A stretch of DNA of 64,000 bases from Rhizodiscina lignyota. Its lineage: Eukaryota. The notes under the pieces are model-generated. The model worked only from the letters and a program-made list of their open reading frames with translations. It searched no databases and was not told where the DNA came from. This document shows, piece by piece, positions 7,391-61,421 of this stretch. Positions within the stretch are counted from its first letter, which is position 1; the number at the start of each line of letters is the position of its first letter. Made by a program: the position numbers and the translations under genes. Location: NCBI GenBank assembly GCA_010015805.1, contig ML978124.1:2418001-2482000 (forward strand), read 5' to 3'.

Positions 7391-8678
7391 TTCAGGTGCA
7401 CTTTGGCCAGAGAGGCCAAAGAAGCCAAAGAAGGTTGAAGGGGCTGAAAGAAGAGTGGTAGAAAGGATAACCAGTGGTAAAGCGAACTGTTCTTAGCTAT
7501 TTTCACTCCTAACTATAGGCCAGATAGGGCCAACCTGACTTTATTCTTAAAGGCAGACGCAAGCGCCCATGTAGGCCACATGCAGAGGTGCAGTGGCATA
7601 TCTGCACCTGAAGCCAATCAAGAAGTAAAGTACAAACCTGAAGCCCTCAAGGCCTCAAAACTGCCGAAGAGAAGAAAAAGTAATAAAATAGGAAAGAGAA
7701 GGCGCAACGGAAATAGAATTAAACGGAAATATGCGCTTGAGCTGCATTCACACCCACCCTTAGGATTGGACTCCTTAGACCCAAGGACAGTGCCCACCGA
7801 TTCTAGGTGGTTCGCACCTACGCTTAAGTAGCAATGCCCCCAAAATCGGTCCATCTTCGGGATTCGGTGTGGTACGAGATCTCCCACGCTTACGTTGGGC
7901 TTTTAGCTCCGCGTTCCACCTTACTTCTTTCTAAGAGATATACGCAACATTAACAGGCAGTCTTAATATGAGATAGTGCATGTCCTAGTCCTTTATCATA
8001 CTGACTTGACTCTCATGAGTAGAATCAAGACTTGTCCAGCCCGGGACATCCGGCCTTCTAGTCCTGCAGCCGGTTCAGCCCTCTGGTTCAAATTATTTTT
8101 TTTGTCTCTGCCTGCTCCTCTCAATCACTTGGATGGATTTCATTCTTGTCTCTCGGACTCTACTCTATCCAGCCGCTCTCAATATTCACCATCCAGATCA
8201 GGTTCTTGTCTCCGCGAAAGCAAGCCAATCAGGCATGACATGTACTTTCAAAAATGAGGCTGATGCCTAGGGCATTCAGTTTAAGGCAAACATGCAGCTG
8301 CTGGAAAATCTTAATGGCTAACAGCGGAGCCATGTACCTTTAATATTCTCCCATTGGAGAGTTTTGAGGGGTTGTTGTTCATGGTTTGAGACTGCCAGGG
8401 CTGAATCTATTGGGCGTTACGAGTTCATGGGAATCAACATCCTGGCAGCCCGGTGGCAGAGCAACAGTCCGCATGCAGGTAGCGGTTGCCTTGTTGATCA
8501 CGGAACTGCGCGAGACTAACTTAGGCGCCTACAGGAATACACCCTCTATTCGACGCTGCCGGGACATCATTCTGTTTATTCTACCGTCCAGCCAATGTGC
8601 AGCTTAACCAGAGAAGCTCAATTCAGTTGGGAAAAGATCGATTGATGGGCTAGATATCCTGCTAGGATACCAGCTGTG

Positions 8679-11378
8679 ATGTCCGGGTACAGGTTTACCT
8701 ATTCGTGGCAGAACAATAGCCCGCCTGTCAATCGGCCTCTTACTCCACCAGACCTTACCGAATGGGCACCAGACCCTCGGTTGCAGAAAATTGGTCTTGC
8801 AAACAAGCCAGCAGCTGAATTTGATAACTTCTATACACCTCAGAATCAATCCTTCTACTCAAAGTCCCCATATCTGCCCTTAGATCCAAAGCGGCGCGAA
8901 ATCCGGCTTGTCAAAGTTCTTGGACGAAAGCCTTGGGCCGAGTACGTTACAGCAAATCCTCAACGGGTGCAGAATGGTCTAAATGGAAAGTTCGCGAGAC
9001 CTCAAGAGCGGCGACTCCCTAGCAAAAAGGAGCTGTCTAATCCCTCGTCGTCCCTGCTAATGGCATCCAATCCATCGCCAATGACATGCGAATTGGTCGA
9101 CAAAGTTGCGCTTTCAAGAATCGATGGGCACTACTGCACCTTGTCGTATAATGCGGGGAAGCCAACGGATACAAAGACAATGATTGTGGACGGCATAGTA
9201 TTCAATGCGTTCGCAAATCTCGAGCACGCGATCGGATGTGCCTTCGAGAGTTGGTCATCAAGGAACCCCGGCAGGGAGCTGCTGCTATGGGTTGATCAAA
9301 TTTGCATCAATCAGGTGGACCAACTCGAACGAGGAAGCCAAGTTGCAATGATGAGAGATATATATCGCAGGAGCAATGAGACCTTCATCTGCTTATCCAC
9401 TCCCGGAGCAGAACACTGCTTATCATGGGTTCCTCGTGTCCCACGAAGGGTATCCAGTGGCCGGCCTTCCACACAGAGCATCGGGCCGCGAGAAGAATGG
9501 CCTGCCGTATCGGCTCTCAAAATGTGTCTTCGACGGTTACTTGTCGGACCAGATGCGTCTATCTCTCCTCCAATAGCCCAGCGTAGGCTTCAAGATACTT
9601 CGCATCGTCGGGATACCTCGCGTCATCGGGATACATCTAATCATGAAAATGCAGCACGCCGTCGAGCTACATCGAAGCATCGATATTCATCCTCTTCCTC
9701 CGTGTCAAGTCCAGAACCGAGCCCCCCACCTGTAGATAAAAATCTCCGGCGACATAACAAAACTCAGCCTACGAAGCCTGTAGCAACAGAGCATTCCGAC
9801 TTGTTGGCGCCTAAAAATGGCGTTGGAAAAACGAAATCTGCGGTAGATGAATGGGTGGCTGGGTCACCACGACCTCAGGGAGTAGCTGTACGTGTAAAAG
9901 TTGCGCCAATGCGACCGAACACTGTATCAGCGGAACAAGAGACTTCATTATCACGACCAGAGACTGTATCACTGCATGGAAATACCGCAATATCAAACGA
10001 AGTAACCGCCGATCGATTGTTGACTGGCCTAGAAGCCTTCACTACGAGCCAGTGGTGGGGTCGGTCATGGGTCTATCAAGAATTTATAGCATCTCCTCGG
10101 CCTCATTTTCTCTCAGGCTCCACTTCAATTCCTTGGACAGAGCTGGCACCTACTTTGGAGTTTATCTGCGGCGGCCTCGATGCATTTATTGACCCAATGC
10201 TTTCGGAAGCCATTACCAGCGCTTCGCAAGAGGACAAGCAAAAGAACAAAGATGCTCAAGAGGAATATCAGAGAAGCTTACGTGAATACGAAGAAAAGAT
10301 GAACATATATCAGCAGCAGAGCCTTCTGGAGTTGCGAAAGTGGTGGCAAGCGCGCCAGATTTCATCCCTATTAACATACGGGACTGGAAGCTTCAAAGAG
10401 GCGAAGCGTGAATGGGAAAATGATGTGCGAAACGGATCTGGCGAAGGTAGAATACTGACCAGGGGATTCAAGCCAAGCTGTTCGCGACCCAAGCCCCCAG
10501 TTCAGCAGCCATTGGCCGTAGCAGGAAAGCAGCGGGCCCAACACTTGTCTTCCCTTCAAAATCGGTTCCGAGCACTGAGTACATCGACAATCTCTTCGAT
10601 GGTGGAAGGCAAGGTGAACCTGCGAAGGTCTTCGGACCTAAAGACCATTCTACAGCATTCCAGACATTGCAAGGCATCAGACCCCCGAGACAGAGTTTAC
10701 GCATTCATCGGTTTGGCGGACAAAGAGTACGCAATTATCCCCGACTATTCCACGAGCAATACCGTAGTCCAGGTCCTAATCAATACCGCGCGGCGAATCA
10801 TTGAGCACGAAAAGAAACTTAGTATCCTCAAGCACGTGTGCCACGGCCGTGAAAAACTGGGCTGGTTGCTTCCTTCGTGGGTGCCTGATTGGACCAGCAC
10901 GGAGGTCGACCGAAGAATCAAAGACTCCGACTTGGTCTGGAGTGGCGGACAGAGGGAGAGATCGTTTGATGCGTCAAAGGGCCTGGTCACTCGGCCTGAG
11001 TTCCGGAAAGACGAAACGAACGAGTCCAACATGGATTTGAAAACCAAAGGTGTTTTTTTCGACTTTCTTGACGAGTATTACGAGGCCGACGAACCGGACG
11101 GGGCTGAGGATGCCTTTCCACATTTTCAATCTTTCTTGACCCAGAGCAGTCGGCGAGTTATTGCCCCCAAATCTGCTCTTTTGGACGATGAGGTCTGGGT
11201 TCTCCACGGTGCGTCAAAGCCTGTGCTTCTACGGCCGGAGGGTGATGATACGTATGGCTTTCTCGGTGAGATTTTGGTTTGTGAACGGAACGGCACTTTT
11301 TCGGATGTAATGTTCGGCAAGATGATTGAACTGGCAGAGCAAGGGAATGCGGAGACGAAGGATATCTGGATTGTGTGA
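8679..11378 (+). CDS. HET-domain (heterokaryon incompatibility, HET-6-like) protein
   Basis: HET motifs YCTLSYNAG, LWVDQICINQVDQLERGSQVAMMRDIYRRS and WWGRSWVYQE, plus the HET-6-type C-terminal blocks ASDPRDRVYAFIGL, LPSWVPDW and DEVWVLHGASKPVLLRP. First ATG is at 8679. Confidence 0.9.
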   Translation: MSGYRFTYSWQNNSPPVNRPLTPPDLTEWAPDPRLQKIGLANKPAAEFDNFYTPQNQSFYSKSPYLPLDPKRREIRLVKVLGRKPWAEYVTANPQRVQNGLNGKFARPQERRLPSKKELSNPSSSLLMASNPSPMTCELVDKVALSRIDGHYCTLSYNAGKPTDTKTMIVDGIVFNAFANLEHAIGCAFESWSSRNPGRELLLWVDQICINQVDQLERGSQVAMMRDIYRRSNETFICLSTPGAEHCLSWVPRVPRRVSSGRPSTQSIGPREEWPAVSALKMCLRRLLVGPDASISPPIAQRRLQDTSHRRDTSRHRDTSNHENAARRRATSKHRYSSSSSVSSPEPSPPPVDKNLRRHNKTQPTKPVATEHSDLLAPKNGVGKTKSAVDEWVAGSPRPQGVAVRVKVAPMRPNTVSAEQETSLSRPETVSLHGNTAISNEVTADRLLTGLEAFTTSQWWGRSWVYQEFIASPRPHFLSGSTSIPWTELAPTLEFICGGLDAFIDPMLSEAITSASQEDKQKNKDAQEEYQRSLREYEEKMNIYQQQSLLELRKWWQARQISSLLTYGTGSFKEAKREWENDVRNGSGEGRILTRGFKPSCSRPKPPVQQPLAVAGKQRAQHLSSLQNRFRALSTSTISSMVEGKVNLRRSSDLKTILQHSRHCKASDPRDRVYAFIGLADKEYAIIPDYSTSNTVVQVLINTARRIIEHEKKLSILKHVCHGREKLGWLLPSWVPDWTSTEVDRRIKDSDLVWSGGQRERSFDASKGLVTRPEFRKDETNESNMDLKTKGVFFDFLDEYYEADEPDGAEDAFPHFQSFLTQSSRRVIAPKSALLDDEVWVLHGASKPVLLRPEGDDTYGFLGEILVCERNGTFSDVMFGKMIELAEQGNAETKDIWIV

Positions 11379-28026: not shown

Positions 28027-28177
28027 GAGAAGTGTGTTATGAGAAGTGTGTTATGAGAAGTGTGTTATGAGAAGTGTGTTATGAGAAGTGTGTTATGAGA
28101 ATTGTGTTATGAGAAGTATATTGTAAGAAGTGTATTATGAGAAGTATGTTATGAGAAGTGTGTTATAAGAAGTATAT
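28027..28177. repeat. 14-bp tandem minisatellite (GAGAAGTGTGTTAT) x ~10.8
   Basis: Five perfect units 28027-28096 followed by mostly degenerate units. It ends about 200 bp upstream of the CHK1 ATG. Confidence 0.95.
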
Positions 28178-47215: not shown

Positions 47216-47282
47216 GTCAACAATGATATTTTAACATCACGGACTCGATACCACCCTTGAACAGAGCCATTGACGACCAACT

Positions 47283-48888
47283 ATGGCTCCAAGAGCTCGC
47301 CTTTCAGTTCCTACGAATGCTGCGCTTTCCCACAGCCATCGACTGTCGCCGTCAAACCGCGATGTTTACAAGGCCCTTTCGCGACTGTCGCGTCCTTCAT
47401 TGCTATCACTAGCATTAGAATGGCTCTCAGATTCGAATCTCCAACACTGCCTCCCATACACCCTTGCCGATGAAGACCAAGATGATGCAGACGACGAAGA
47501 TGCGCCTTATTCGGCGGCGCAGAGCATTGAAGAGCTGACGGAAATATACGAGGAACTGCGTGGTCGCAAAGATAGCAAGAGAGAGATCATAGACCGCATA
47601 ATGGAAGGCGACTGGCGGCGCGGAATCTCATTATATCAGCTAGCAATGGCAGAGACACGATACGTCATGGAGCACCAATCGTCACAAAAGTGGCACGCAC
47701 TGCGCCTCACAAGTATCCGCGACGATGACAGCGGGCACGACACAGAGAAGCGAGAGGAAGAAGAGCTGCCTCGATTCCGCCAACAGACTTTCCTCCAGAA
47801 CTTACAGCGCGAAATCGGCCCATTTGCAAAAGCACATCACTATTTCATGAGAGATGAAGAGCTCCGCATCTCATTGCTGCGCGTTCAACTGTACGATCTG
47901 CCGTATAACAGTTCTCAAGCATTACAAGATGTTGCTTTAGCGAAACGTGGACCGTCGGAAGGAGCAAAGAGCGTATATGCTGTGTTCCCTGATGCTACGG
48001 CATATGTCTATGTATCTCTTGGATCATCCTCGAACCAACCTGGAACGGATGGGAAGAGCTTACAACGGATCGTCATTGACGTAAGAACCCGATTGGATAT
48101 TTCCTTCTCTTGCTGATACATCTTAGGCAATTCCAAAGGCTCTCTCGCGACCACAAGCAAGATACACATTGAAAACGACTGCTCTATCTGCCAAGTCTCT
48201 GCCGTCTCTTCTAGCGCTGAGAGGTTCTGGAAGAAGTAACACGGCATCTGGAGGATGGAGCATATTCGTCGAGGACAGTAAAGGATCAAACGCGCTGGAC
48301 TATGCGGAGTCGGCAAGCAACGACATTTTGACGCCAGCAGACAACAAAGAGAACATGCAGCACGGAGAAAAGCGCAGGCTTGAGACTATTGGCGAGACAA
48401 ACGACGTTCAGAATCGAAAACGATGGAAACGAATAGCAGAAGGAAGATTCGGACGCCCAGGCCTAGAATGTGATGGACATGGCATTGAGCGCTTCGAAGT
48501 TCGTATCGATGACGCCTTTCCAAAGTCTGACGATGGAAAGACCATTGTCTCGCGCAAACGCGACCAACCAGAAGATAGAATTGATGGTTCTCACCAGAAG
48601 GTGGTGACAAAAACATCGTCAAAGTCGGGACGCAAGAAGCGCCCTTCGCTGTTGGACAAGACGCAGAATGACGAAATGGACGAATCGCGTGAGGCCAACA
48701 GCACGTGGAAACCGGATGTTCGCATTCTGTTTCATGGCGCTCACGTCTTTGCGGGGATAAGAAAGTTGGTCGAACAGGGTGTGGTAGATGGTGAGAAAAT
48801 GCCAGGCTGGATGACAGGCGAGGCTGGCGTCAGCATTGGTGTGGTTAAGCATGGCAGAATGATGGCTAAGACAGATGCGGCTCTTTGA
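47283..48888 (+). CDS. CHL4: Inner kinetochore protein CENP-N/Chl4/Mis15
   Basis: LSRLSRPSLLSLALEWL, KREIIDRIMEGDWRRGISLYQLAMAE; intron 48081-48126 gives D|AIPKALSRPQARYTL; C-terminal FHGAHVFAGIRKLVEQG..KMPGWMTGEAGVSIG. Confidence 0.92.
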
Positions 48889-49040: not shown

Positions 49041-49385
49041 TCACGATCGCATTGGAGCTTCATCCCCTCTCCCCGATACCATCCTTATCCTGATAGGGCC
49101 GCTGATGTCTTCCACGCCAATGTGGTCGTCTAGAACAACCCCACGCTGCAAGATCTCCACCTGACCACCTGCCCGCAGCTTCCAAGCGACCTTCCGTACC
49201 GGCTCCATGGCACCTCTCCAATCCTGAGCGCCTAAACTGCTCAGTTCTGCAGTAGAGAGGGCTCGGGCGACCTCGGAGGGGCAGATGGTCTTTGGGTAAG
49301 CGCGCGATTCTAACAGAGTGCGCAAGTGGCTTTCCACGGTGTCGGCAGGGGTGGGCGAGGCCGGCGGATTGGCCGGATAAGGCAT
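49041..49385 (-). CDS. DUF3253-family small protein
   Basis: RAYPKTICPSEVARAL..WRGAMEPVR..GQVEILQRG..GPIRIR signature. Confidence 0.85.
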   Translation of the reverse strand: MPYPANPPASPTPADTVESHLRTLLESRAYPKTICPSEVARALSTAELSSLGAQDWRGAMEPVRKVAWKLRAGGQVEILQRGVVLDDHIGVEDISGPIRIRMVSGRGDEAPMRS

Positions 49386-50644
49386 TTTAGCCAGGCTGTC
49401 GATGCAGCTTTGGTCAGCCGAACGCTGCCTGGTTCCGCGTCATGAGACAATAGGCAGCTGTTGAGGATGTAGAATGGACCTCTCAGAAGCTGATGAAGAT
49501 GTTGGATATTGGCTCGAGCTTCCAATGGATGGAGAAGACGACGTCGGAGGTGGGATGGTCCGACAACATGGCCACGCTTGGAGCTATTTTTGGCCCCTGC
49601 GACCCAAACGCGGGAAGCCCCGCGGCGATCCGCCAAAACAAAACAAACCACCACCAACCTCCATCTCAACTTCCATTCGGCTATCCACCGACCACTCACA
49701 ACCGCGGATTGTCGCTACGCCGCACGATTCTCTTGCTCATATTCGTTCATCACAGTATCCTCAAACTTTCCAACATGGTTTTCTGTACTCCTCCAATTGT
49801 GATAGAGCTTCGTGGCCTATCGTCTACCTGCGCCGCACATGTGGCTTGTAACAGCAGTGAACGCCTCATATCAACAACCCCAACCCAGCCCACCTTACGC
49901 TCGTTTTCAAGGCGCTCGGCGGGAAGGCGGGCAGCTCGAGGCCATGCTGAGACATCTCGGTCGCATCGAATGACAATTCTATACCCTTTTTGGGGCTTTG
50001 CGGAGAGTTGCCGTTCATCTTGGCCGGAGGCTTATGCACTAGTTCCACTACAGCGCTTAGATCCGCCGCGCTTAGAGACCACATCCCATTCGAAGGCTTG
50101 CCTTCTACCAGCTCTCACTCGTCGGTTGTTTCCTATCCGGCTGCATGTGCTGCTTATTTTTGCATCTGTTCTGCATGTCAAACGTCCTCGTTCCTGCCAC
50201 CTCACCACCTTCTCGCCTTCTGGAAATCCTCCGGAAGCGCGAATCATGGCACAGCTGCGAGGCCGGCGAGAATTCAGGCACCATGATTCCTTGACATTTT
50301 CGTAGTCAGTCCAATGAGGACAGTATGCATCTACGCGCTGCCTCCGAAGTTAGTAGGTTCTGTTATCGGGCTGAATCTCGAGGCTTGCTTTGCCTCACTA
50401 GGTTCATGGATTAAGCGTCGCGATATCTGCAAGCATTCACGGTGCATGAAACATTAGATCGAGCGAATAGTTGACTATGAGTGTGGTGTTTGTTTTGTCC
50501 GTTTATGTGACCGTGTTGACTTTTGTTCAGTCCATATCCGCATTCTCTGCTGATCGGCTCCAGTTCTCATCGTGTTCCTTTCTCCTGACTACCTTTGAGA
50601 CAAACAGCCCTGGAGAGCTGCAATTGTAATTCTTTCAATTCTCA

Positions 50645-52963
50645 ATGGCGCATCTTGAAATTCCAAAGGCTCCGGGCAGCCCTACTACTACAATTCATTC
50701 CCAATCTGATACGATGGAGTTACCCCCAGGGTGGCCGCTCAATGACCGAAACAGTCCGCAGTTCGTGAGCCCATCGACGCACTATTTCCAGAATGGCGCC
50801 TCTCCACCGAGGGCAACAGCCTATGTCACCGACTACCCGATTGCATTCGACGAGAAGAGGCCAATTGAGAACCCTGAGTTCGGTCTTCCTCAGATCCCGG
50901 AGGCTGCTGCCATACCGAATAACGCCTTCTATCCGTCCCACGAGGATGTGTTGGGCCCTCACATCACTCAATCCCAATCAACTAAAAAGAGCTTTCGGCG
51001 AAAGCGATTCAACTTCAAGAGCGGTATCCAGCGTCTCTACGAAAGCTGGGTTGACAACTGGTGGCTTTGGGAGTTGATGGCGTGGTGTCTCAGTGCTGTC
51101 TGTATGGGCATTATCGCTCTAGTCCTTCTCCTTCTAGATGATACCCAAACTACCACCATGGAGGTGACACTCAATTCTATCATATCCGTCCTCTCTGGTA
51201 TCGCAAAAGCTGCCCTTCTTCTGCCGACTGCAGAAGCCCTGGGCCAGTTGAAGTGGAGCTGGTTCTGGCGCGACTCGAAGAAAGTTCGGGATTTTGAGAC
51301 GTTTGACGCTGCAAGCCGCGGGCCTTGGGGCTCTCTAATGCTTTTGATCCGAACGAAAGGAAAGTGAGTCGAATTGATTCTGACTTGCAGGTCTTTATTC
51401 GGATCCACTGACTGATGCTGCAGAACGCTCGCTACTATCGGCGCCGTCATTACCATCCTCTCCATCGCTGTCGATCCATTCTTTCAGCAATTGGTCATAT
51501 TTCCCCAAAAATGGGTCGCCCAAGGCACTGGAACCATGCCGCAGCTTCAGACTTACTATGGTTCAAACTACAACATCACCATGGCTGGCTCTGCGTACTT
51601 CTCGGCAGACACGGAGTTGCGGAGTTTCTTGGAACCAATGTTTTTTGGCCACGATCTGCAACCAAAAATCCCTCTGAACTGCCCAACAAGGTAACAAATC
51701 CGTATTAGTCCTTCTGGAGTCTTTGGGACTAATGAGTGCTGCAGTAATTGTACTTGGGAGCCTTTCGATACTCTCTCGATCTGTAGTGCTTGCCACGACG
51801 TATCTGACCTGCTCCATTACGGATGTTACAATACCACTTTGGATTGGCTCCATAACGTCACCGGTCAAGAGAAATCGCTCCCTGTCATCGAGACTTGCGG
51901 ATATTTCTTGAATGCAACATCAGACAACCCAACCCTTATGAGCGGATACATCCCTAAAGGAGATCCAGCGTTGCAAGAAGTCTTGATTGCGAGGCTATTG
52001 TCTATGGTGACCCAGACAGCAGATGGATACAAGGTGTACTATGATGGGTCCATCCATTTCAAAGATATCGTCAATCCCATCGCAGACTACATAACGGTCA
52101 GCGCTCCGAACGGTGTGCCAAGCGTTTACGGAAACTCAACGCCTGTCGCACAAGAGTGTGTTTTGAACTGGTGCACACAAAAATTCAACATGTCCTACTA
52201 CAGTGGCAATTTGACACAAATTCCGGTAGACCCTCCGCTGCGGACAACCGAGAAGACTCCATTCCCGTGGGCGATGGACGCTCCAGTGGATGGCCAGCCA
52301 AATTACATCTACTATGCCAATTTGTCACTTACTCCTCCGGGTCAGAATCTTACATTTTCCTTGTCAAACGACACCTTTTTCCAAACCATCGTCACAATCA
52401 ACGAATTCCTGCCCTCGCTTCTGACTGGACGAAGTGGCGACCCCGAGATGCAGTACAGATTCTACAACACTATTCCCCCGCCATTTGTGCGGCCTATGAC
52501 TGTGAATCCGTTCTCTGACATCGTGAATTTGAACGACCGCGTTGGCAAGCTCATGACAAATGTGCTCCTTACATCTTTCGTGGGGGCGAACCTTCAGGTT
52601 GGCACAGCATGGGAGCAGGTGGTTTTTATCAACGTTCGTTGGATATGGATGGTACTCCCATTCACACTCCTTCTCTTTAGCTTGCTATTCTTACTTGCGA
52701 CGATCTTCAAGAGCGAGGATGAGAAAGGCGACATCGGCATCTGGAAGACATCTGCGCTAGCTGTCCTGTTGAATGGCCTCCGAGGAGACGTGCAGCGTCA
52801 AATGGGCGATTCGCACGAAATGGGCGAGGCACGAAAGAATGCTGAGGATGTCCGAGTCAAGCTGATGCTCAACAAAAAAGGCCGGTTCCGACTCTCTGGA
52901 ATCAACGGGCCGTCCTGGATGGTATCACCTCGAGGTGGACCTGGAGGGCGTACATGGTTTTAA
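50645..52963 (+). CDS. DUF3176-like multi-pass membrane protein (paralog A)
   Basis: WWLWELMAW, TLNSIISVL..AKAALLLPTAEALGQLKWSWF, FDAASRGPWGS, DPFFQQLV, CPTSNCTW, AQECVLNWC, INVRWIWMVLP..WKTSALAVL. Introns 51364-51423 and 51691-51744. Confidence 0.88.
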
Positions 52964-53290
52964 AATGAACACAGTATGAGAGAATTTCACCGACTACAGC
53001 TCGAATTGAAATTGATAATGGAGACTTTTTTTTGTGACAGACAGACCCATTGATTCACACAGAGGAAACTATTGAAGACAGGCAACAAATCGTCGAGGAG
53101 CCCCTAAAGAGAACCGTGGAGCCACGCCCAACACACCGAACGCACCAAGGAAATCCAGAATTTTGGACGACGAGACGTCAAAATATACATCAGAAACATT
53201 ATCACAGAAGAAAAAGGTGGCCAAATGGAACACATATCTGCGTCGCACCACGGACTGCCTCGGACTCACGCCAACAACACTCTTCTTTGT

Positions 53291-53920
53291 CTAGTAAGAG
53301 CCTGGCCCTTTCTGCATCAAGTCAGCGATACATCAACTGGTTCTCACCGGGGCATGACTTACGCCATTTGTTCCTCTCTTGGCTGGTTCAATGGGACCTG
53401 GAATCATTCAGTACATCGCTGCTTTCATATACAGTGAGACACATACTATACGAGCCTGGGCCTTTCTGTACCGAGTCAGCGATACATCAAACGTATCATC
53501 AGCCGGGCTTAACTTACACCATTCGTTCCTCTTTTATACGAGCCTGGGCCTTTCTGTGCCGAGTCAGCGGCATATCAGCGGGTTCCCAGAGGGACCTGAC
53601 TTACACCATTCGTTCCTCTCTTGGCCGGTTCAATGGGACCTGGAGTAATTCAGTACATGGTTGCTTTCATCTACAGAGACTCGAGTGTCACATACTGTAT
53701 GAGCCTGGCCCTTTCTGTGGCGAATCAGTAACACAGCCATGTCATAAGCAAAGGCATTACTTACACCGTTTGTTCCTCTCTTCATCGGCTCGATCGGGCC
53801 TGAGCTTGGTCAATACGCGAGCCTTTCTATCTAGGAGTGCACCAATACTGTAAGAGCCAGGTCCCTTCTGTTGTTGGGTCAGCTTGGGTCCTTTGATCGG
53901 GCCTCTACCGACTTACGCCG
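53291..53920. repeat. Degenerate tandem repeat of ~155-bp exon-intron-exon-intron units (one unit shortened), forming the KEP gene body
   Basis: Recurring plus-strand words gagcctgg(c/g)cctttctg, acttac(a/g)cc and gttcctctctt. Related introns share sequence, e.g. 53640-53695 versus 53398-53446. Confidence 0.9.
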
Positions 53921-54042
53921 TCTACCCTCTTTGCGAACGGCTCCACAAGCTCCCCATTTGCAACAGGAACCGCCAATGGCGCCGCCGCCACAGTAGCTGC
54001 CAGGGTTGCAGTGAGAAGGACGAGAAAATCGCGGGGCATCAT
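53291..54042 (-). CDS. Secreted Kex2-type repeat-peptide precursor (KEP), 114 aa, 9 exons; cores GTNGKGPGSY x4 and VDGKGPGSY x1
   Basis: Exons 54042-53917, 53867-53849, 53799-53765, 53714-53696, 53639-53605, 53553-53518, 53465-53447, 53397-53363, 53311-53291. All eight introns are 49-56 nt, GT..CAG, with branch-site-like motifs. The spliced CDS is 345 nt and open to a TAG directly after the last core. Confidence 0.9.
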
Positions 54043-55491
54043 CTTGTTCAAAGAGATTGGACGCGCGCTTAAGAATAGAAAGAGTCGAGATTAAAGGGTG
54101 GTATAGAGAACAACTGGCTGTTTGGTGTTGTGGATTGAAAGCTGTGTTGTGCAGTCTTTTCGGAGCGGTCCATGGACTCAATTTATGTTTGACATGGGAC
54201 AGGAGACACTCTTTCGAACGGCAGCCCTCAATGCGGAGAACACCATCCCGGCAGCGGTCAATAACCTCGAAGACGCACACAAAGAAACACATCACTCCAT
54301 CGCGCTTACGGATCTCGCCAATGACGTTTGTGTAACGAAACTGTAAAAACAGGCACAAGCAGCTTACTGGTCCAACGACTGAAAGGGCTGGAAGTATCGC
54401 AAAAGAAATGCCGGGCGCTTCGAGAAATGAGTCCAAGCAGCGAAAAGGGCTCGATGACGGTGGCCATGGAGTGCCCAGATCCCACGAGGCGGTCGCCATT
54501 CTTCGACCTTCGATACGCCAGACGCGGCCGATGGCATTTGTGGCGTGTGCTTCGAAACAGCCGACGCACGTCTCCCACGATTTCCGCACCACGGTCCACG
54601 ATAACGAGGGTCTGTACGAAGCAAAAACCTCAAACATTTGTGATTGTGGATTTTTGCTGTCGAGTGTCGTTGACTTGACGGGACGAGCTTTTCGCCTCAA
54701 ATTGTGATGCGCGGGTCCGGCCAATCAGAGGTGCAGGCTACCTTGTTCGCGCACGAACTCCACACAGCTACGCGCCAACCACCAAACATCCTCTGACATC
54801 TTCATGCAATCTCCACCACTCAAATCTTAACGCCAACCCTGCTCCATCAGGCTGATTCCCATTATAACGGCGACGCCAAAAGTTAAAAGGACGACGCCAT
54901 AAGCGTTCTCCTCGTCTCATCGTGCAGGTGCGACCGTGGAACTTGGAAGGCCTCGATTTTTCGTACTGCAACTCAGGGCACTGTCACCGCTTACCCGACT
55001 GCAAGGCACACATGCTACTTGTCAACATCCTTGAACATTCACTCACCGTCGTCATGTCACACAGTTATCACTACGTTACGCATGTTTCTGGCCCTTTCGA
55101 AGCGCCGAAGGATCTTTGCGTGTGATCTTTCTGCTTATGGATCGTGTACCGAGCTCGGATCATACTGGTAGTATGACCCAGTACCGATTCATCTACTTTG
55201 TACAGCCTTGCGCATTGTTCGCTATTGTTCCTCTCCAATAGCCAACTCCAGAGTGATTCACTATCGCTACGTGTTCATTTTGCGATCCTTTGTATCTAGA
55301 CAACGGTATATTCTCATACTGTAAATCTTGGGTTCGTAAGATAGTCGTTAGAGTAATGCCCGTAATTCTAATTGATGTACGGAATGGCCAACCACTCCAA
55401 ATCTGTCTTTATGTGAGCTCATTGAGAAGTCAAGAAATTCATGGGACCGTTAAATCAACGCAGTTATAAATCGAATATTGCAAATTTTCTA

Positions 55492-57592
55492 TCACTGCGA
55501 AGATACATGCTTTGAAAATCTCCACCGACCTTTACGCCCGCGCAATCGAACTATCAGTCGCGGCTCGTTGCGTCTTCTTCGCACTGTTGTCTGCATGTTA
55601 TCCTTCTCTTTGATCAAATCTTCTCTCAGTCCATGCATGAGAATCGCCAATGCCGAATTTTTCCACACATCTACGTCACCTGATCTGCTGTGCAAGATTG
55701 CTGCTACCAGGAATGCTAAACTTGAAAATAAAAGCACCAGTGGCAAAGAAAACCAAACCCATCGAATATGCACGTACGTCTGGGGACTCAACGCTATGCC
55801 TTCGACCATCTCAGTCCCATATGACGATGAGCGCATGACGTTCGTCATGACTCCCGCAATTCTGTCCAGCTGAGCAGTCCAGTTGTTTCCTGTTAGCCAG
55901 GGATTTGACGGAAGTTGAACTAGATCCGGGGGCCCTACGGGGTCATCTTCATACCTGACCGTGGGCGTGGAATTGCGGGCCTTTGATGTCGTGAATGCCT
56001 GCAAAGGTGACGACCAAAACACGATGATTTCGTCGAATTGGGTGTCATTGGAACTGGGCCCAAAAGTAGTGTTCGACCCTGGCGGTCGAATTGATGGCAC
56101 ATCATATATATAGTAATCCGGGCTCCCATCATCCATATCTTTAACATGCCATTCCGGGGAAGACATCTTCGTTCTGTTATCGTACTTTGCCACGACCGAT
56201 TCGTTATATTCTCCATTGAGAACAGATGCTTGGACCTTCTTGACACACCAATGGAGATTGCACTCCTGAGCTAGTGGTCTTGTATTGGTCTTCACGCCAT
56301 CGTAACCGCCTGGAGTTGCGATGATCATGACATCCAGAAGTGCAAGTGGTATATCCTTGAAGTGCATCGAACCATCGTAATGGCAAGTGTTACCGACGTA
56401 CGGAGCATTGAGAACGAGTGTGCGCCCAACTAAAACTTCGGATTCATTGGCAGAATTCTCATACCCGCTGACGAGCACTGGTGATGCGCTTGTGCCATTG
56501 AGGAAAAATCCGCACGTTTCGGGTGCTGGAACTTTTTTGTTGACATTAGTCGTAGTGTTGGCCGCCCATTCTTGACTGTAATCTACCACCGAGCTCTTCC
56601 AATTGACTGGCGTGGGCATGCATCTGAACGAGAGGAGGTCAGATATATCTGCACACTCGCTACAGACCCCCAAAGTTTCAAATGCGGGAAACTGGCAATT
56701 TCCAGTGGGACATTGTACTTTCAGATCCGGTTCCTTACTACTCTCATTGGAGTAGAGCAGAGGGGTAACAAAATAATTCATTGAGACATCCGGAGTAAAC
56801 AGTTCGCTCCCCATTTCATGAACAGTAGCCGGAATGAGACTGTCCCATTGATATACCACGCTTCTGGGGAGCATCGCTTCTTTGACAGGTACACTCCGCA
56901 GAGGAAATACTACAATTTGCTGGAAGAACGGGTCGAGTGCAATGGAGAGCAGCATGACTGCCGCACCTATAGTAGAAAGAGCGCTTTGAGACATAGTTGG
57001 TCAGCTGCACCGTATCCACTGCTGAGCAATCCTTGATCACATACCGGCCTCTCGTTCTCAGGATCAACATAAAGGAGCCCCAAGGTCCTCGGGTTGCCTC
57101 ATCAAATGTTTGAAAATCATTCACGTCACGGCCCCGAGTGGCAAACCAATTCCATTTCAGCTGTCCAAGCGCTTCTGCGGTCGGTAGCAGGAGCGCCGCT
57201 TTGGCAAACGATCCAAAAACAGAGACATAGGAGTTGATCGTTAAGCCCAAGGGCCACTCCGGAAGTGGGCGACCTTCATAGACGGCCAGGAAAATCGCGA
57301 TTGCACCCATGCAGAAGGCCGCAAAACACCAGCTGAACAATTCCCAAAGCCACCATTCGTCGACCAGGTTCCAGAAACTGCTGTTCGGCGCGACCCTCCA
57401 TGAGGTCTGTCGTCTGAAGTCGCGAACAGTAGGTACGTCATCTGCCGCTATTGACTGGTTGTTACTGCATTGCTCAGGAGTATCGTTTCGTGTGAATGAA
57501 GGGATCCAATGTCGTCTCTTTTCGGCAATCGCCCAGGAGTAGCTCGGAGGAGGACGGGGAAACACAGTGATGGACTCGACGTCAGAATCCAT
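55492..57592 (-). CDS. DUF3176-like multi-pass membrane protein (paralog B)
   Basis: WWLWELFSW, TINSYVSVF..AKAALLLPTAEALGQLKWNWF, FDEATRGPWGS; intron 56984-57044; DPFFQQIV, CPTGNCQF, AQECNLHWC, VHIRWVWFSLP..WKNSALAIL. Confidence 0.88.
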
Positions 57593-59285: not shown

Positions 59286-61421
59286 TCAAAGCTTACTCTG
59301 CCCTTCCTGCATCGGCAACGCTCCGCTCATGAACGGGCCATTCTCATCAGCACCCTGGCCAAGGAATACCGCATCTCTTCCCCCATGCGTATTCCACCAC
59401 GTCACGCACATCTGCGACCGCTCCGGATCCATCTCGCCACTGATGAGAATCTCCCACAACCGCTCCTGACATATCTTACGCATCGATACATCTGATACGC
59501 GATTGATGAGATTCGCAGACATGGGGAGAGACTCATCGAGTAGATCCAGAGGCAAGAATGGTAGAGCGTCGAGGAAGGTCAGTACTAGAACTGCTTGTTC
59601 TGATAACGGTGGAGAGTCGTCTGGTTGGGTCATTGGTGTAGTAGGCTGTGGCGTGTTGAGAGGTGTGGCTGGTGCGGAGAGAGCTCGGTGGTGGACAAGT
59701 TCCATCAGTGCTCCAGGAAGATCAGGTTGGGTTGCAGAGAGCGGTGCGGGTGGAGCAGTTACGCGCATCAGCGTCTTGAATGCAAGACGAAATTGGCGTG
59801 GAGAGAGATTGTGCGGGAAAACGCTGAATAGTGCGTCGACGTAGAATGGTAGATGTTTTGCCGTGAGTTCAGCACTTTGTGGTGCGGATAATACCGATAG
59901 TATTACGCTGTGTGCGGCCTCGAAAATGGGTAGTAAGTCATTGCTGCCACCCGCAGCGAGGTATGGTGCAGCCGCAGCTACGAGCAATTCTTCGTTTACG
60001 GTGGGCGTGAGGACGAGAGTGAAGTGCTCCGCCGTGTTGAGGAAATACAGGTCCAGACATCGGTCCAAGGCATTCTCTGGGATCTGGCCAAGCCCTACCG
60101 GCCTGATTGATTTCAAGAACGCGTCAGCATGGATCGCGTATGTACTGAGAATATCGATTGCTGTCAAACAGACGAATGTGTATTGAGTGAACGAGTGTGT
60201 GCCCGTTCTGGAGGAGATGAAGTAAAGATTCCTGAGTGCATGCAGAGACTGCGAAACCATGACAGGTGCTACAGCATCAGATGAGAGTAGCCTGTCGCCC
60301 AGAAGCCGTCCTATCGCAGCGCGAAGAATGATGACGCTTGCGAATAGCGTCGACCTGAGCAGCTTCCATAAGGGTGGTAATGTTGTGCGAAGCGTATCTG
60401 CCGTGAAGTATTGCGCCTCCTCCGAAGCATCGACTTCTGAGAGCCCAATCTGGCGCCATTGGGTGAGAAGAGACCTCGTGAAACCAGCAATGTCGTCTAC
60501 AAGCGTCTGGACGAGCAGAGAATCCCGTACTTGCTCCGCAGCATGCGCGATTAACCTCGAAAGCGGGCCCATGGATGCTACAAGCGGTCTGGATACTACT
60601 CTTGCAATCTGGCGAGCTGAGGCAGAGTTTGATGGCCAGTCAAACTTTTGATCCTCCGTTGTTTTGATGTGCATGCCGATAGATGCAAGAAAGTACGCCG
60701 ACTGGAAACCTTCAAGCGAGTAGTATGCCGTTCCAACCAAGACTGGGAGTAGTCCATCGTAATCCAGCTTCGCCCGATCCGCGTCCGAGAGGAGTGGGAA
60801 CGTATGATTTAGCACAAGCGTGATACAGTGTGCACCAAGTTCGTCGCCATTTCGGGCCTCAACAATAGCCAGATTCGTAGCTCTTGCTAATGCATCCTCC
60901 AAAGTTCGGCGCATCGAACGAGTGAGTCCCTCACGATCTTGTCCTTCAAAGCCAACAAACAGACCTCCGAGGACCATGAGATGCTTCCATCTTTGTGAAC
61001 GGTCGTCTGCTCCTTTGACTACTGCTTTCACCCACTCTTCCCGTGGCATGCCTCCACCAATCTGAGGCGTATCTGGATACAAAGGCTGTGGTTTATCCTT
61101 CTCCTGTATTTCTCCTTCGCGTACTAAAGTCGCAGCAGCAGAGTGGAATACACTCATCACCCGGAGGCATGTGCCCAGTCCTTCCGGTCTGTCCCATATT
61201 GCCGGTGCTGCTAAGAGGTGCGATGTGAGGAGTGTGAGGTTAAGCGGATTCGTCAGAGTCGTGAGAAGAGATGATGCGGTGGACAATAATCTAAGAAACC
61301 GGTATCAGTTCTGCATGAATGGAATTGCAGCTATCATTGTCACTTACCTGGGCGTGTCTTGTTGGTCTGTATACGTCTGTAGAGACCGAAGGAGGGTGCC
61401 GAGCAATCTGTCAGCAGGCAT
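59286..61421 (-). CDS. PEX8: Peroxin Pex8 (Pex17 in Yarrowia nomenclature)
   Basis: MPADRLLGTLLRSLQ..DTP|RLLSTASSLLTTLTNPLNLTLLTSHLL (intron 61291-61347), LDLYFLNTAEHF, FPHNLSPRQFRLAF, GEMDPERSQMCVTWW; ends in the PTS1 tripeptide SKL. Confidence 0.9.

Follow-up and report, generated by a model that had tools for sequence, protein, structure and literature searches.

Fungal Kex2-processed precursors (KEPs) are matured through the Kex2/Kex1 pathway, and most of the peptides they yield are without known function according to PMC9769878. The signals and receptors of somatic cell communication were likewise still undescribed according to a 2019 review (PMC6455062). In dikaritin clusters (ustiloxin, phomopsin, asperipin), as presented in PMC7329392, a KEP precursor adjoins membrane proteins, often two, of a family of unknown function. 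Precursors of alpha-pheromones, as presented in PMC6339444 and PMC9769878, carry a signal peptide, dibasic sites and repeated cores, and their products are linear. The cwr locus of Neurospora crassa, as described in 10.1101/2025.01.17.633681, consists of two linked, co-inherited, polymorphic genes with six haplogroups; one product, CWR-1, is secreted, and the other, the allorecognition protein CWR-2 of the DUF3433 family, is a multi-pass protein with two DUF3433 domains, eight transmembrane (TM) helices and two large ectodomains, the exchange of which alters allele specificity. A locus with features of each of these systems is present in Rhizodiscina lignyota (Dothideomycetes, order Aulographales; genome size 33.4 Mb), within a stretch of 64,000 nt ("the window", to which all positions refer): a Kex2-type repeat precursor gene lies between two genes, A and B, for DUF3176 membrane proteins. 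The window locus is one member of a recurrent, apparently unreported module found across Dothideomycetes, in which such a secreted precursor is linked to one clade of DUF3176. The module may be a polymorphic peptide signal and receptor that lets fungi tell kin from strangers. No report of a link between DUF3176 and KEPs was found in the literature searched (most subscription journals, figures and bioRxiv supplements lay outside its coverage), and DUF3176 was not found by text search of PMC7329392 or in three supplementary files (figure 6, on neighbouring domains, was not covered). The one DUF3176 paper found, a preprint, is concerned, in the part available, with NDT80 fusions in Fusarium.

Paralog A (50645..52963, + strand; exons 50645-51363, 51424-51690 and 51745-52963) encodes 734 aa, and paralog B (55492..57592, - strand; exons 57045-57592 and 55492-56983) encodes 679 aa. 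The two proteins are 37% identical (250/676 columns), and the position of the first intron is common to both. Each matches DUF3176 (Pfam PF11374, curated cut-off 27 bits) and no other Pfam family in the scan, A with 113 bits and B with 101 bits; exon 1 alone scores 88 and 99 bits, respectively. An annotated R. lignyota protein is 100% identical to B. In both, three helices at the N-terminus and one at the C-terminus enclose an ectodomain of ~385 aa; the two ectodomains have 8 Cys in common and carry 10-11 sequons. The precursor gene (53291..54042, - strand) is tail-to-tail with A, the two stops being 327 bp apart, and the stop of B lies 1449 bp from the precursor start. An earlier note on this DNA had described two DUF3176-like proteins around a repeat precursor, at distances of ~330 bp and ~1.45 kb, with N-terminal TM helices, a Cys- and sequon-rich ectodomain and a C-terminal TM helix; the family scores, measured distances and topology agree with that description. 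The only long open reading frame (ORF) between B and the precursor, of 281 aa, has no Pfam match. Among the DUF3176 loci listed for the genome (at least 13), A and B are the only neighbours; the Pfam search missed one further DUF3176-like gene.

The precursor (114 aa) is encoded by nine exons (53917-54042, 53849-53867, 53765-53799, 53696-53714, 53605-53639, 53518-53553, 53447-53465, 53363-53397 and 53291-53311), a splice model built from the sequence alone. All eight introns are GT-AG and 49-56 nt long, and six of the eight contain a branch-site consensus. Exon 1 (53917..54042, - strand) specifies a hydrophobic, signal-peptide-like start, a short pro-region and the first of four KR sites. The repeated core, Gly/Pro-rich and 10 residues long with Tyr as its last residue, is present in five copies, the first of which deviates at its start; three copies are followed by a 6-residue spacer and then KR, one directly by KR, and one by the stop. 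The protein thus has the marks of a KEP: repeated cores between dibasic sites and a signal-peptide-like start, the latter as judged by a hydropathy heuristic only. Codon differences among core copies 2-5 are 23 synonymous vs 0 non-synonymous, and the last six core codons of all five copies differ by 30 synonymous vs 0 non-synonymous changes; the paralogous introns are 51-77% identical. Since core change is synonymous only and the introns have drifted, the spliced precursor frame is under coding selection. The precursor is single copy in the genome, and a protein search with its exon 1 gave no match among 419 candidates.

Relatives were sought with an alignment of 20 B-like proteins as the query, and 68 loci on metagenome contigs of unstated species, from the best 80 of 154 confirmed stretches, were scanned for precursors by a detector that combines a signal-peptide-like start, recurring peptide words and basic sites. 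All 35 calls of the detector in these loci, of which one duplicates another in antisense, lie at most 3.5 kb from a DUF3176 gene (262 kb scanned), and 34 of the 68 loci have such a call. In comparison, the 125 kb beyond this distance gave no call, nor did the 220 kb surrounding 11 further R. lignyota DUF3176 loci, and 380 kb of random R. lignyota genome gave one (all controls together, 1 in 725 kb). Its single call in the window is the precursor flanked by A and B. Relatives' DUF3176 genes thus adjoin precursors far more often than control DNA does, as would be expected from the earlier proposal that the genes belong together. In 27 loci a precursor and a DUF3176 copy are tail-to-tail. The start of the precursor is then 591-1273 bp from the end of the DUF3176 gene, a range that includes the window value of 1079 bp. 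Related loci contain arrays of 1-4 DUF3176 copies, often 2-4. It is not the exact sandwich of the earlier note, present in the window, that is conserved; the recurring arrangement places a precursor tail-to-tail with one copy of such an array.

When the tail-to-tail group and the basal locus L058 were merged at 90% identity (hand count), 23 clusters had a precursor; of the others, 2 lacked one despite long flanks, 2 had a repeat array truncated by the contig end, and 2 were short-flanked. Many precursor-less loci are contigs that end close behind the DUF3176 gene. An upstream ORF family is common to twelve related loci, so many of these descend from one syntenic locus. None of the window's flanking ORFs grouped with ORFs of any related locus; shared gene order therefore does not explain the link in the window lineage. 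The link is kept in several gene contexts and orientations (L023, L058, L061, L075, L083 and the window), and the L058 precursor is intron-rich, as is that of the window. In a check independent of the detector, the Exserohilum DUF3176 protein EOA91789 is five accessions from the catalogued KEP EOA91784, if accession order is taken as gene order. Dendryphion and Aaosphaeria each have two DUF3176 copies with one accession between them.

The link is confined to one DUF3176 clade, which holds A and B. In a tree of 102 proteins (from 125 merged at 90% identity; rooted on an R. lignyota paralog; pieces under 330 aa dropped, including 3 of 11 R. lignyota paralogs), A and B are sisters (support 0.82) inside a clade (support 0.94) that takes in all precursor-linked copies together with named proteins of Venturia, Lineolata and many Pleosporales. 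The eight other R. lignyota paralogs in the tree fall outside it. The DUF3176 profile as a whole matches 13,448 clusters at 50% identity.

The related precursors are a family by their signal peptide, with left-out scores of 16.7-54.2 bits vs at most 7.2 for 502 control starts, and a pro-region is common to many of them. Their named homologues are hypothetical proteins of Alternaria. One of these, OAG15636 (Alternaria alternata), is listed as type 0, without DUF3328, in Table S2 of PMC7329392; in this the family resembles the stand-alone KEPs of that table. KEP type G-9 of PMC7329392 was considered, on its list of genera, as the family of the related precursors and dropped, the two matchable precursors being type 0. 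The related cores vary by locus, are mostly Gly-rich (up to 45%), with many basic and some acidic, and are bordered by basic sites, often with acidic dipeptide spacers. The 33 scored repeat sets contain duplicates and omit the intron-rich L058; Tyr is absent in 31 of them and Tyr and Trp are both absent in 25, and Cys occurs in none. At the far ends of several arrays (L047:7689; L073:6782-7420 and 8289; L080:2369-2884 and 3865; L084; L072) there are 1-2 more precursors on the array strand; they carry mixed cores, some like cores that stand alone at other loci, and could be ligands for other DUF3176 copies.

These peptides bear on the idea, put forward in the earlier note, that the DUF3176 pair is an alternative maturation machinery whose lumenal domains modify or trim the peptide in place of UstYa oxidases. 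The topology faces the lumen, and, as that note had also stated, there is no UstYa gene near the locus (the nearest match on the contig, among those listed, is ~250 kb off). Furthermore, the window cores end in Tyr, and three of them then carry a spacer without a dibasic site, so some trimming may be needed. However, no modifiable residue is common to the related peptides: the lack of Tyr in 31 of 33 sets, which argues against dikaritin-like maturation, compares with a Tyr content of 65.6% given for DUF3328-linked KEPs in PMC7329392. Basic sites directly border most related cores, and the near-invariant ectodomain columns (8 Cys, Leu, Trp, Gly, Pro, two Glu, one Arg) include no His. A role in maturation is therefore highly improbable. 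Unlike dikaritin clusters, the module has no nearby DUF3328/UstYa gene, no HxxHC motif (none occurs in A or B) and no Tyr common to related cores. UstYa matches number at least 76 in the whole genome, many of them clustered, and the genome is thus probably rich in dikaritin loci elsewhere.

The likeness to alpha-pheromone precursors extends to XA/XP spacers in many of the related precursors. Those of the window, in contrast, are absent: its cores follow KR directly. The cores also match neither type that PMC6339444 presents for Dothideomycete alpha-pheromones (two Cys, or the Pleosporales motif). Moreover, unlike the pheromone/Ste2 arrangement, the neighbour is not a seven-TM G protein-coupled receptor (GPCR), and precursor and putative receptor are adjacent.

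The predicted structure of B contains three helices, a beta-rich ectodomain of 385 aa (55759..56913, - strand), which is the candidate peptide-binding part, and a fourth helix; paired strands are predicted to hold the ectodomain between two TM helices. Modelled alone, the ectodomain reaches a pLDDT of 90 and a pTM of 0.90. Among relatives it is the fastest-changing part of the DUF3176 protein. Pairs of the tail-to-tail copy are 90-93% identical in TM1-3 vs 51-70% in the ectodomain, and in the five closest pairs the ratio of non-synonymous to synonymous substitution rates (dN/dS) is 0.00-0.03 in TM1-3 vs 0.07-0.20 in the ectodomain. Two loci with a common upstream ORF family, L050 and L066 (the former grouping with L057/L064), differ discordantly. 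Their neighbouring copies are 96%/92% identical, with a synonymous divergence (dS) of 0.12-0.35. The copies next to the precursor, in contrast, reach only 65%/44% identity, their dS is saturated, and the precursor repeats differ. Ectodomain identity among L057, L064 and L066 is 84-86%, and the repeats of these three loci are different. On the few metagenome contigs concerned, the precursor and the tail-to-tail copy thus show the pattern of swapped old haplotypes, apparently kept across close relatives.

The same linkage and co-swapping would be expected of a toxin with its immunity protein, that is, of peptides that antagonise other fungi or bacteria and a linked DUF3176 protein that binds its own peptide and shields the producer. 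The Gly-rich repeats, many of them basic, would suit such peptides, and candidalysin is an example of a KEP-derived toxin in PMC9769878. The cores, however, are very short, have no common sequence pattern and are in some cases acidic, and many precursors have the pheromone-type dipeptide spacers. In addition, the near-invariance of the membrane part suits a signalling unit better than a passive sink. Toxin and immunity are thus an unlikely explanation of the module.

The ends of the DUF3176 proteins contain further motifs. PPxY is present in 9 of 22 N-terminal tails vs 1.1 in shuffles (maximum 4 in 200 runs); B has it, at residue 15, and A does not. Such a motif fits ubiquitin-controlled surface proteins. 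The C-termini of many related proteins (P0003-P0016) have a conserved Pro-rich end with Gly-Trp and a hydrophobic residue, a possible cytosolic binding motif; the end of A is similar and that of B is not. A predicted complex between the L066 ectodomain and a 36-residue part of the precursor at that locus, made with no alignment and no control folds by a method unproven for peptides, scored 0.00 twice, a value that speaks neither for nor against binding.

In the ESM Atlas, the neighbours of B outside DUF3176 include a DUF3433 cluster (TM-scores 0.54/0.51 over 458 residues). In the reverse search, with a DUF3433 protein of the R. lignyota genome, DUF3176 clusters take first place for features (0.96, 188 shared) and second place for structure (0.59/0.54 over 428 residues). 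This likeness is between predicted models on both sides, those of B and of DUF3433 proteins other than CWR-2. Fold searches of the PDB gave nothing clear, which does not prove a new fold: full-length B reached a best Foldseek E of 0.15 and a best Z of 6.4 (to helical bundles), and the ectodomain a best E of 0.08 and a best Z of 2.8. No ENaC/ASIC or P2X-like channel was listed with a meaningful score in these searches. CWR-2 would correspond to two DUF3176-type units joined in a single chain, and the pairing of copies such as A and B would then have a reason. Unlike CWR-2 (two units, ~1220 aa), A and B each have one four-helix unit (~700 aa) and no DUF3433 match; the DUF3433 matches of the genome lie elsewhere than the A/B locus. 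The partner also differs, being a repeat precursor and not an AA11 monooxygenase (none among the window ORFs scanned). As to haplogroups like those of cwr, discordant divergence between adjacent genes is seen in metagenome loci. Finally, CWR answers non-self alleles, whereas the diverse peptides here would fit self-match better. A DUF3433 gene is, according to a preprint on the Venturia inaequalis pangenome, among the most diverse core genes of that fungus. No repeat arrays were found around five DUF3433 loci of the R. lignyota genome or around its further DUF3176-like gene (L136; G000:C6 ~1132500-1134400). This last gene adjoins an ORF that is HET-like by eye and is ~15 kb from a DUF3433 gene.

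A large, disulphide-rich ectodomain that paired strands hold between two TM helices, together with tandem paralog arrays that could form heteromers, would also suit a peptide-gated or peptide-regulated channel, a variant of the receptor proposal in which several four-helix units would assemble into a pore and the peptide would open it. Neither pore residues nor an oligomeric state were identified, though, and CWR-2, which by predicted fold is the closest relative with a studied function, does not figure as a channel in the available part of 10.1101/2025.01.17.633681. It is doubtful, then, that the units form a channel.

Of the roles proposed earlier, that of receptor or channel has thus gained (variable ectodomain, haplotype-like swapping, PPxY tails, predicted fold of the CWR-2 family), whereas alternative maturation is weakened. 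From gene structures, linkage, clade restriction, peptide diversity, a fast ectodomain on a near-invariant membrane part and the haplotype-like swapping seen at a single syntenic locus, all read at the sequence level, we infer binding, expression, localisation and function of the module as follows. The precursor would enter the secretory path, where Kex2 would cleave after KR and Kex1 would trim, as in the known pathways, releasing short linear peptides; in the window these would be the 10-residue cores, in some cases extended by a C-terminal spacer. At the plasma membrane, the DUF3176 copy tail-to-tail with the precursor (A in the window) would act as the receptor: its ectodomain would recognise the peptide that its own haplotype encodes, while the conserved membrane and cytosolic part of the protein would relay the signal. 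B may provide the second four-helix unit that CWR-2 has in one chain. The most likely role would be self or kin signalling, for example in cell-fusion control or density sensing, with specificity provided by the matched peptide-receptor pair. This reading as a whole, from short linear peptides released through Kex2/Kex1 to their detection at the cell surface by the linked DUF3176 protein of the same haplotype, in self or kin signalling, is on balance probable. The wider proposal, that DUF3176 is a family of non-GPCR peptide receptors with an unsolved ectodomain fold and that the clade and its precursors are a multi-allelic system of peptide recognition, every haplotype both producing a peptide of its own and sensing it, is conceivable and a good deal more tentative.

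Several observations weigh against such a receptor. In no region does dN/dS exceed 1, and the ectodomain values of neighbouring copies (0.08-0.26) overlap with those of the tail-to-tail copy. The discordance between L050 and L066, in metagenome contigs, could reflect alleles, a difference between species or chimeric assembly. The profile-profile comparison of DUF3176 with DUF3433 (the latter a 3-sequence profile) is not significant (probability <1%), and no better than a reversed control. The window signal peptide scores 3.9 bits on the family profile (rank 15 of 483 reported control starts), and the pro-region profile of the related precursors has no match in the window precursor, which is tied to them by architecture and position, with no clear sequence homology apparent. 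Most related loci are one syntenic locus in kindred fungi and hence not independent; for this reason, and since the detector was tuned with positives already in view, the p-values obtained for the linkage are too favourable. No precursor is present at L031/L032 and L054/L065 despite long flanks. In Corynespora and Venturia effusa no catalogued KEP accession is near a DUF3176 accession, so that one of three genomes is positive.

Some of these points would be expected if there were no direct partnership and the precursor merely rode with the DUF3176 array, through shared regulation or inherited order, the window precursor being an unrelated KEP that landed there: it has no detectable homology to the others, most positive loci come from one syntenic locus, and some lineages lack a precursor. 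However, calls are made at ~0.14 per 100 kb of background vs 13 near the clade, by a rule that was tuned after positives had been seen; the link is kept across the gene contexts and orientations named above, and the window keeps the common tail-to-tail geometry. Mere co-residence is accordingly not a likely account of the link. Where the 3' flanks of precursor-less copies were checked, their AT content is raised (GC 0.36 in L032, 0.43 in L054), and decayed transposons may have displaced the precursor at L031, L032, L054 and L065.

By the features tested, the module is not a dikaritin cluster, a pheromone locus or a cwr locus, and it most plausibly works like a linked ligand-receptor recognition locus. 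Recognition groups are defined by linked peptide and receptor alleles that vary together in the agr system of staphylococci and at the S-loci of plant self-incompatibility. These systems involve unrelated proteins and kingdoms, and the analogy is one of working, without homology. The module offers candidate peptides matched to candidate receptors, open to synthesis and direct cross-testing. For DUF3176 it is also a first lead to a function, and the receptor class to which it points is distinct from GPCRs. If DUF3176 proteins are indeed multi-allelic receptors, many orphan stand-alone KEPs would gain receptors, and DUF3176, DUF3433 and CWR-2 might be one recognition superfamily. For the undescribed signal and receptor of somatic cell communication, the module would then supply a candidate, in Dothideomycetes at least.

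Other genes and repeats are present around these loci. HET-domain genes occur near DUF3176 genes at L054:5012-6748, L065:386-2137 and L088:7078-8025, which includes one precursor-less cluster, and an RTA1-like membrane protein gene lies downstream of the array at L080:7066-8244, with matching ORFs in L035, L077 and L081. The window itself contains a HET-domain gene with a 910-aa open frame (8646-11378, + strand) and a tandem array (28027-28173; 14-bp unit, 10.5 copies, 90% matches). Neighbouring genes of the A/B locus are a CENP-N/CHL4 kinetochore gene (47274-48888, + strand) and a DUF3253 gene (49041-49439, - strand). A 672-aa frame at 59286-61304 (- strand) has no Pfam match; we take it to resemble fungal Pex8.

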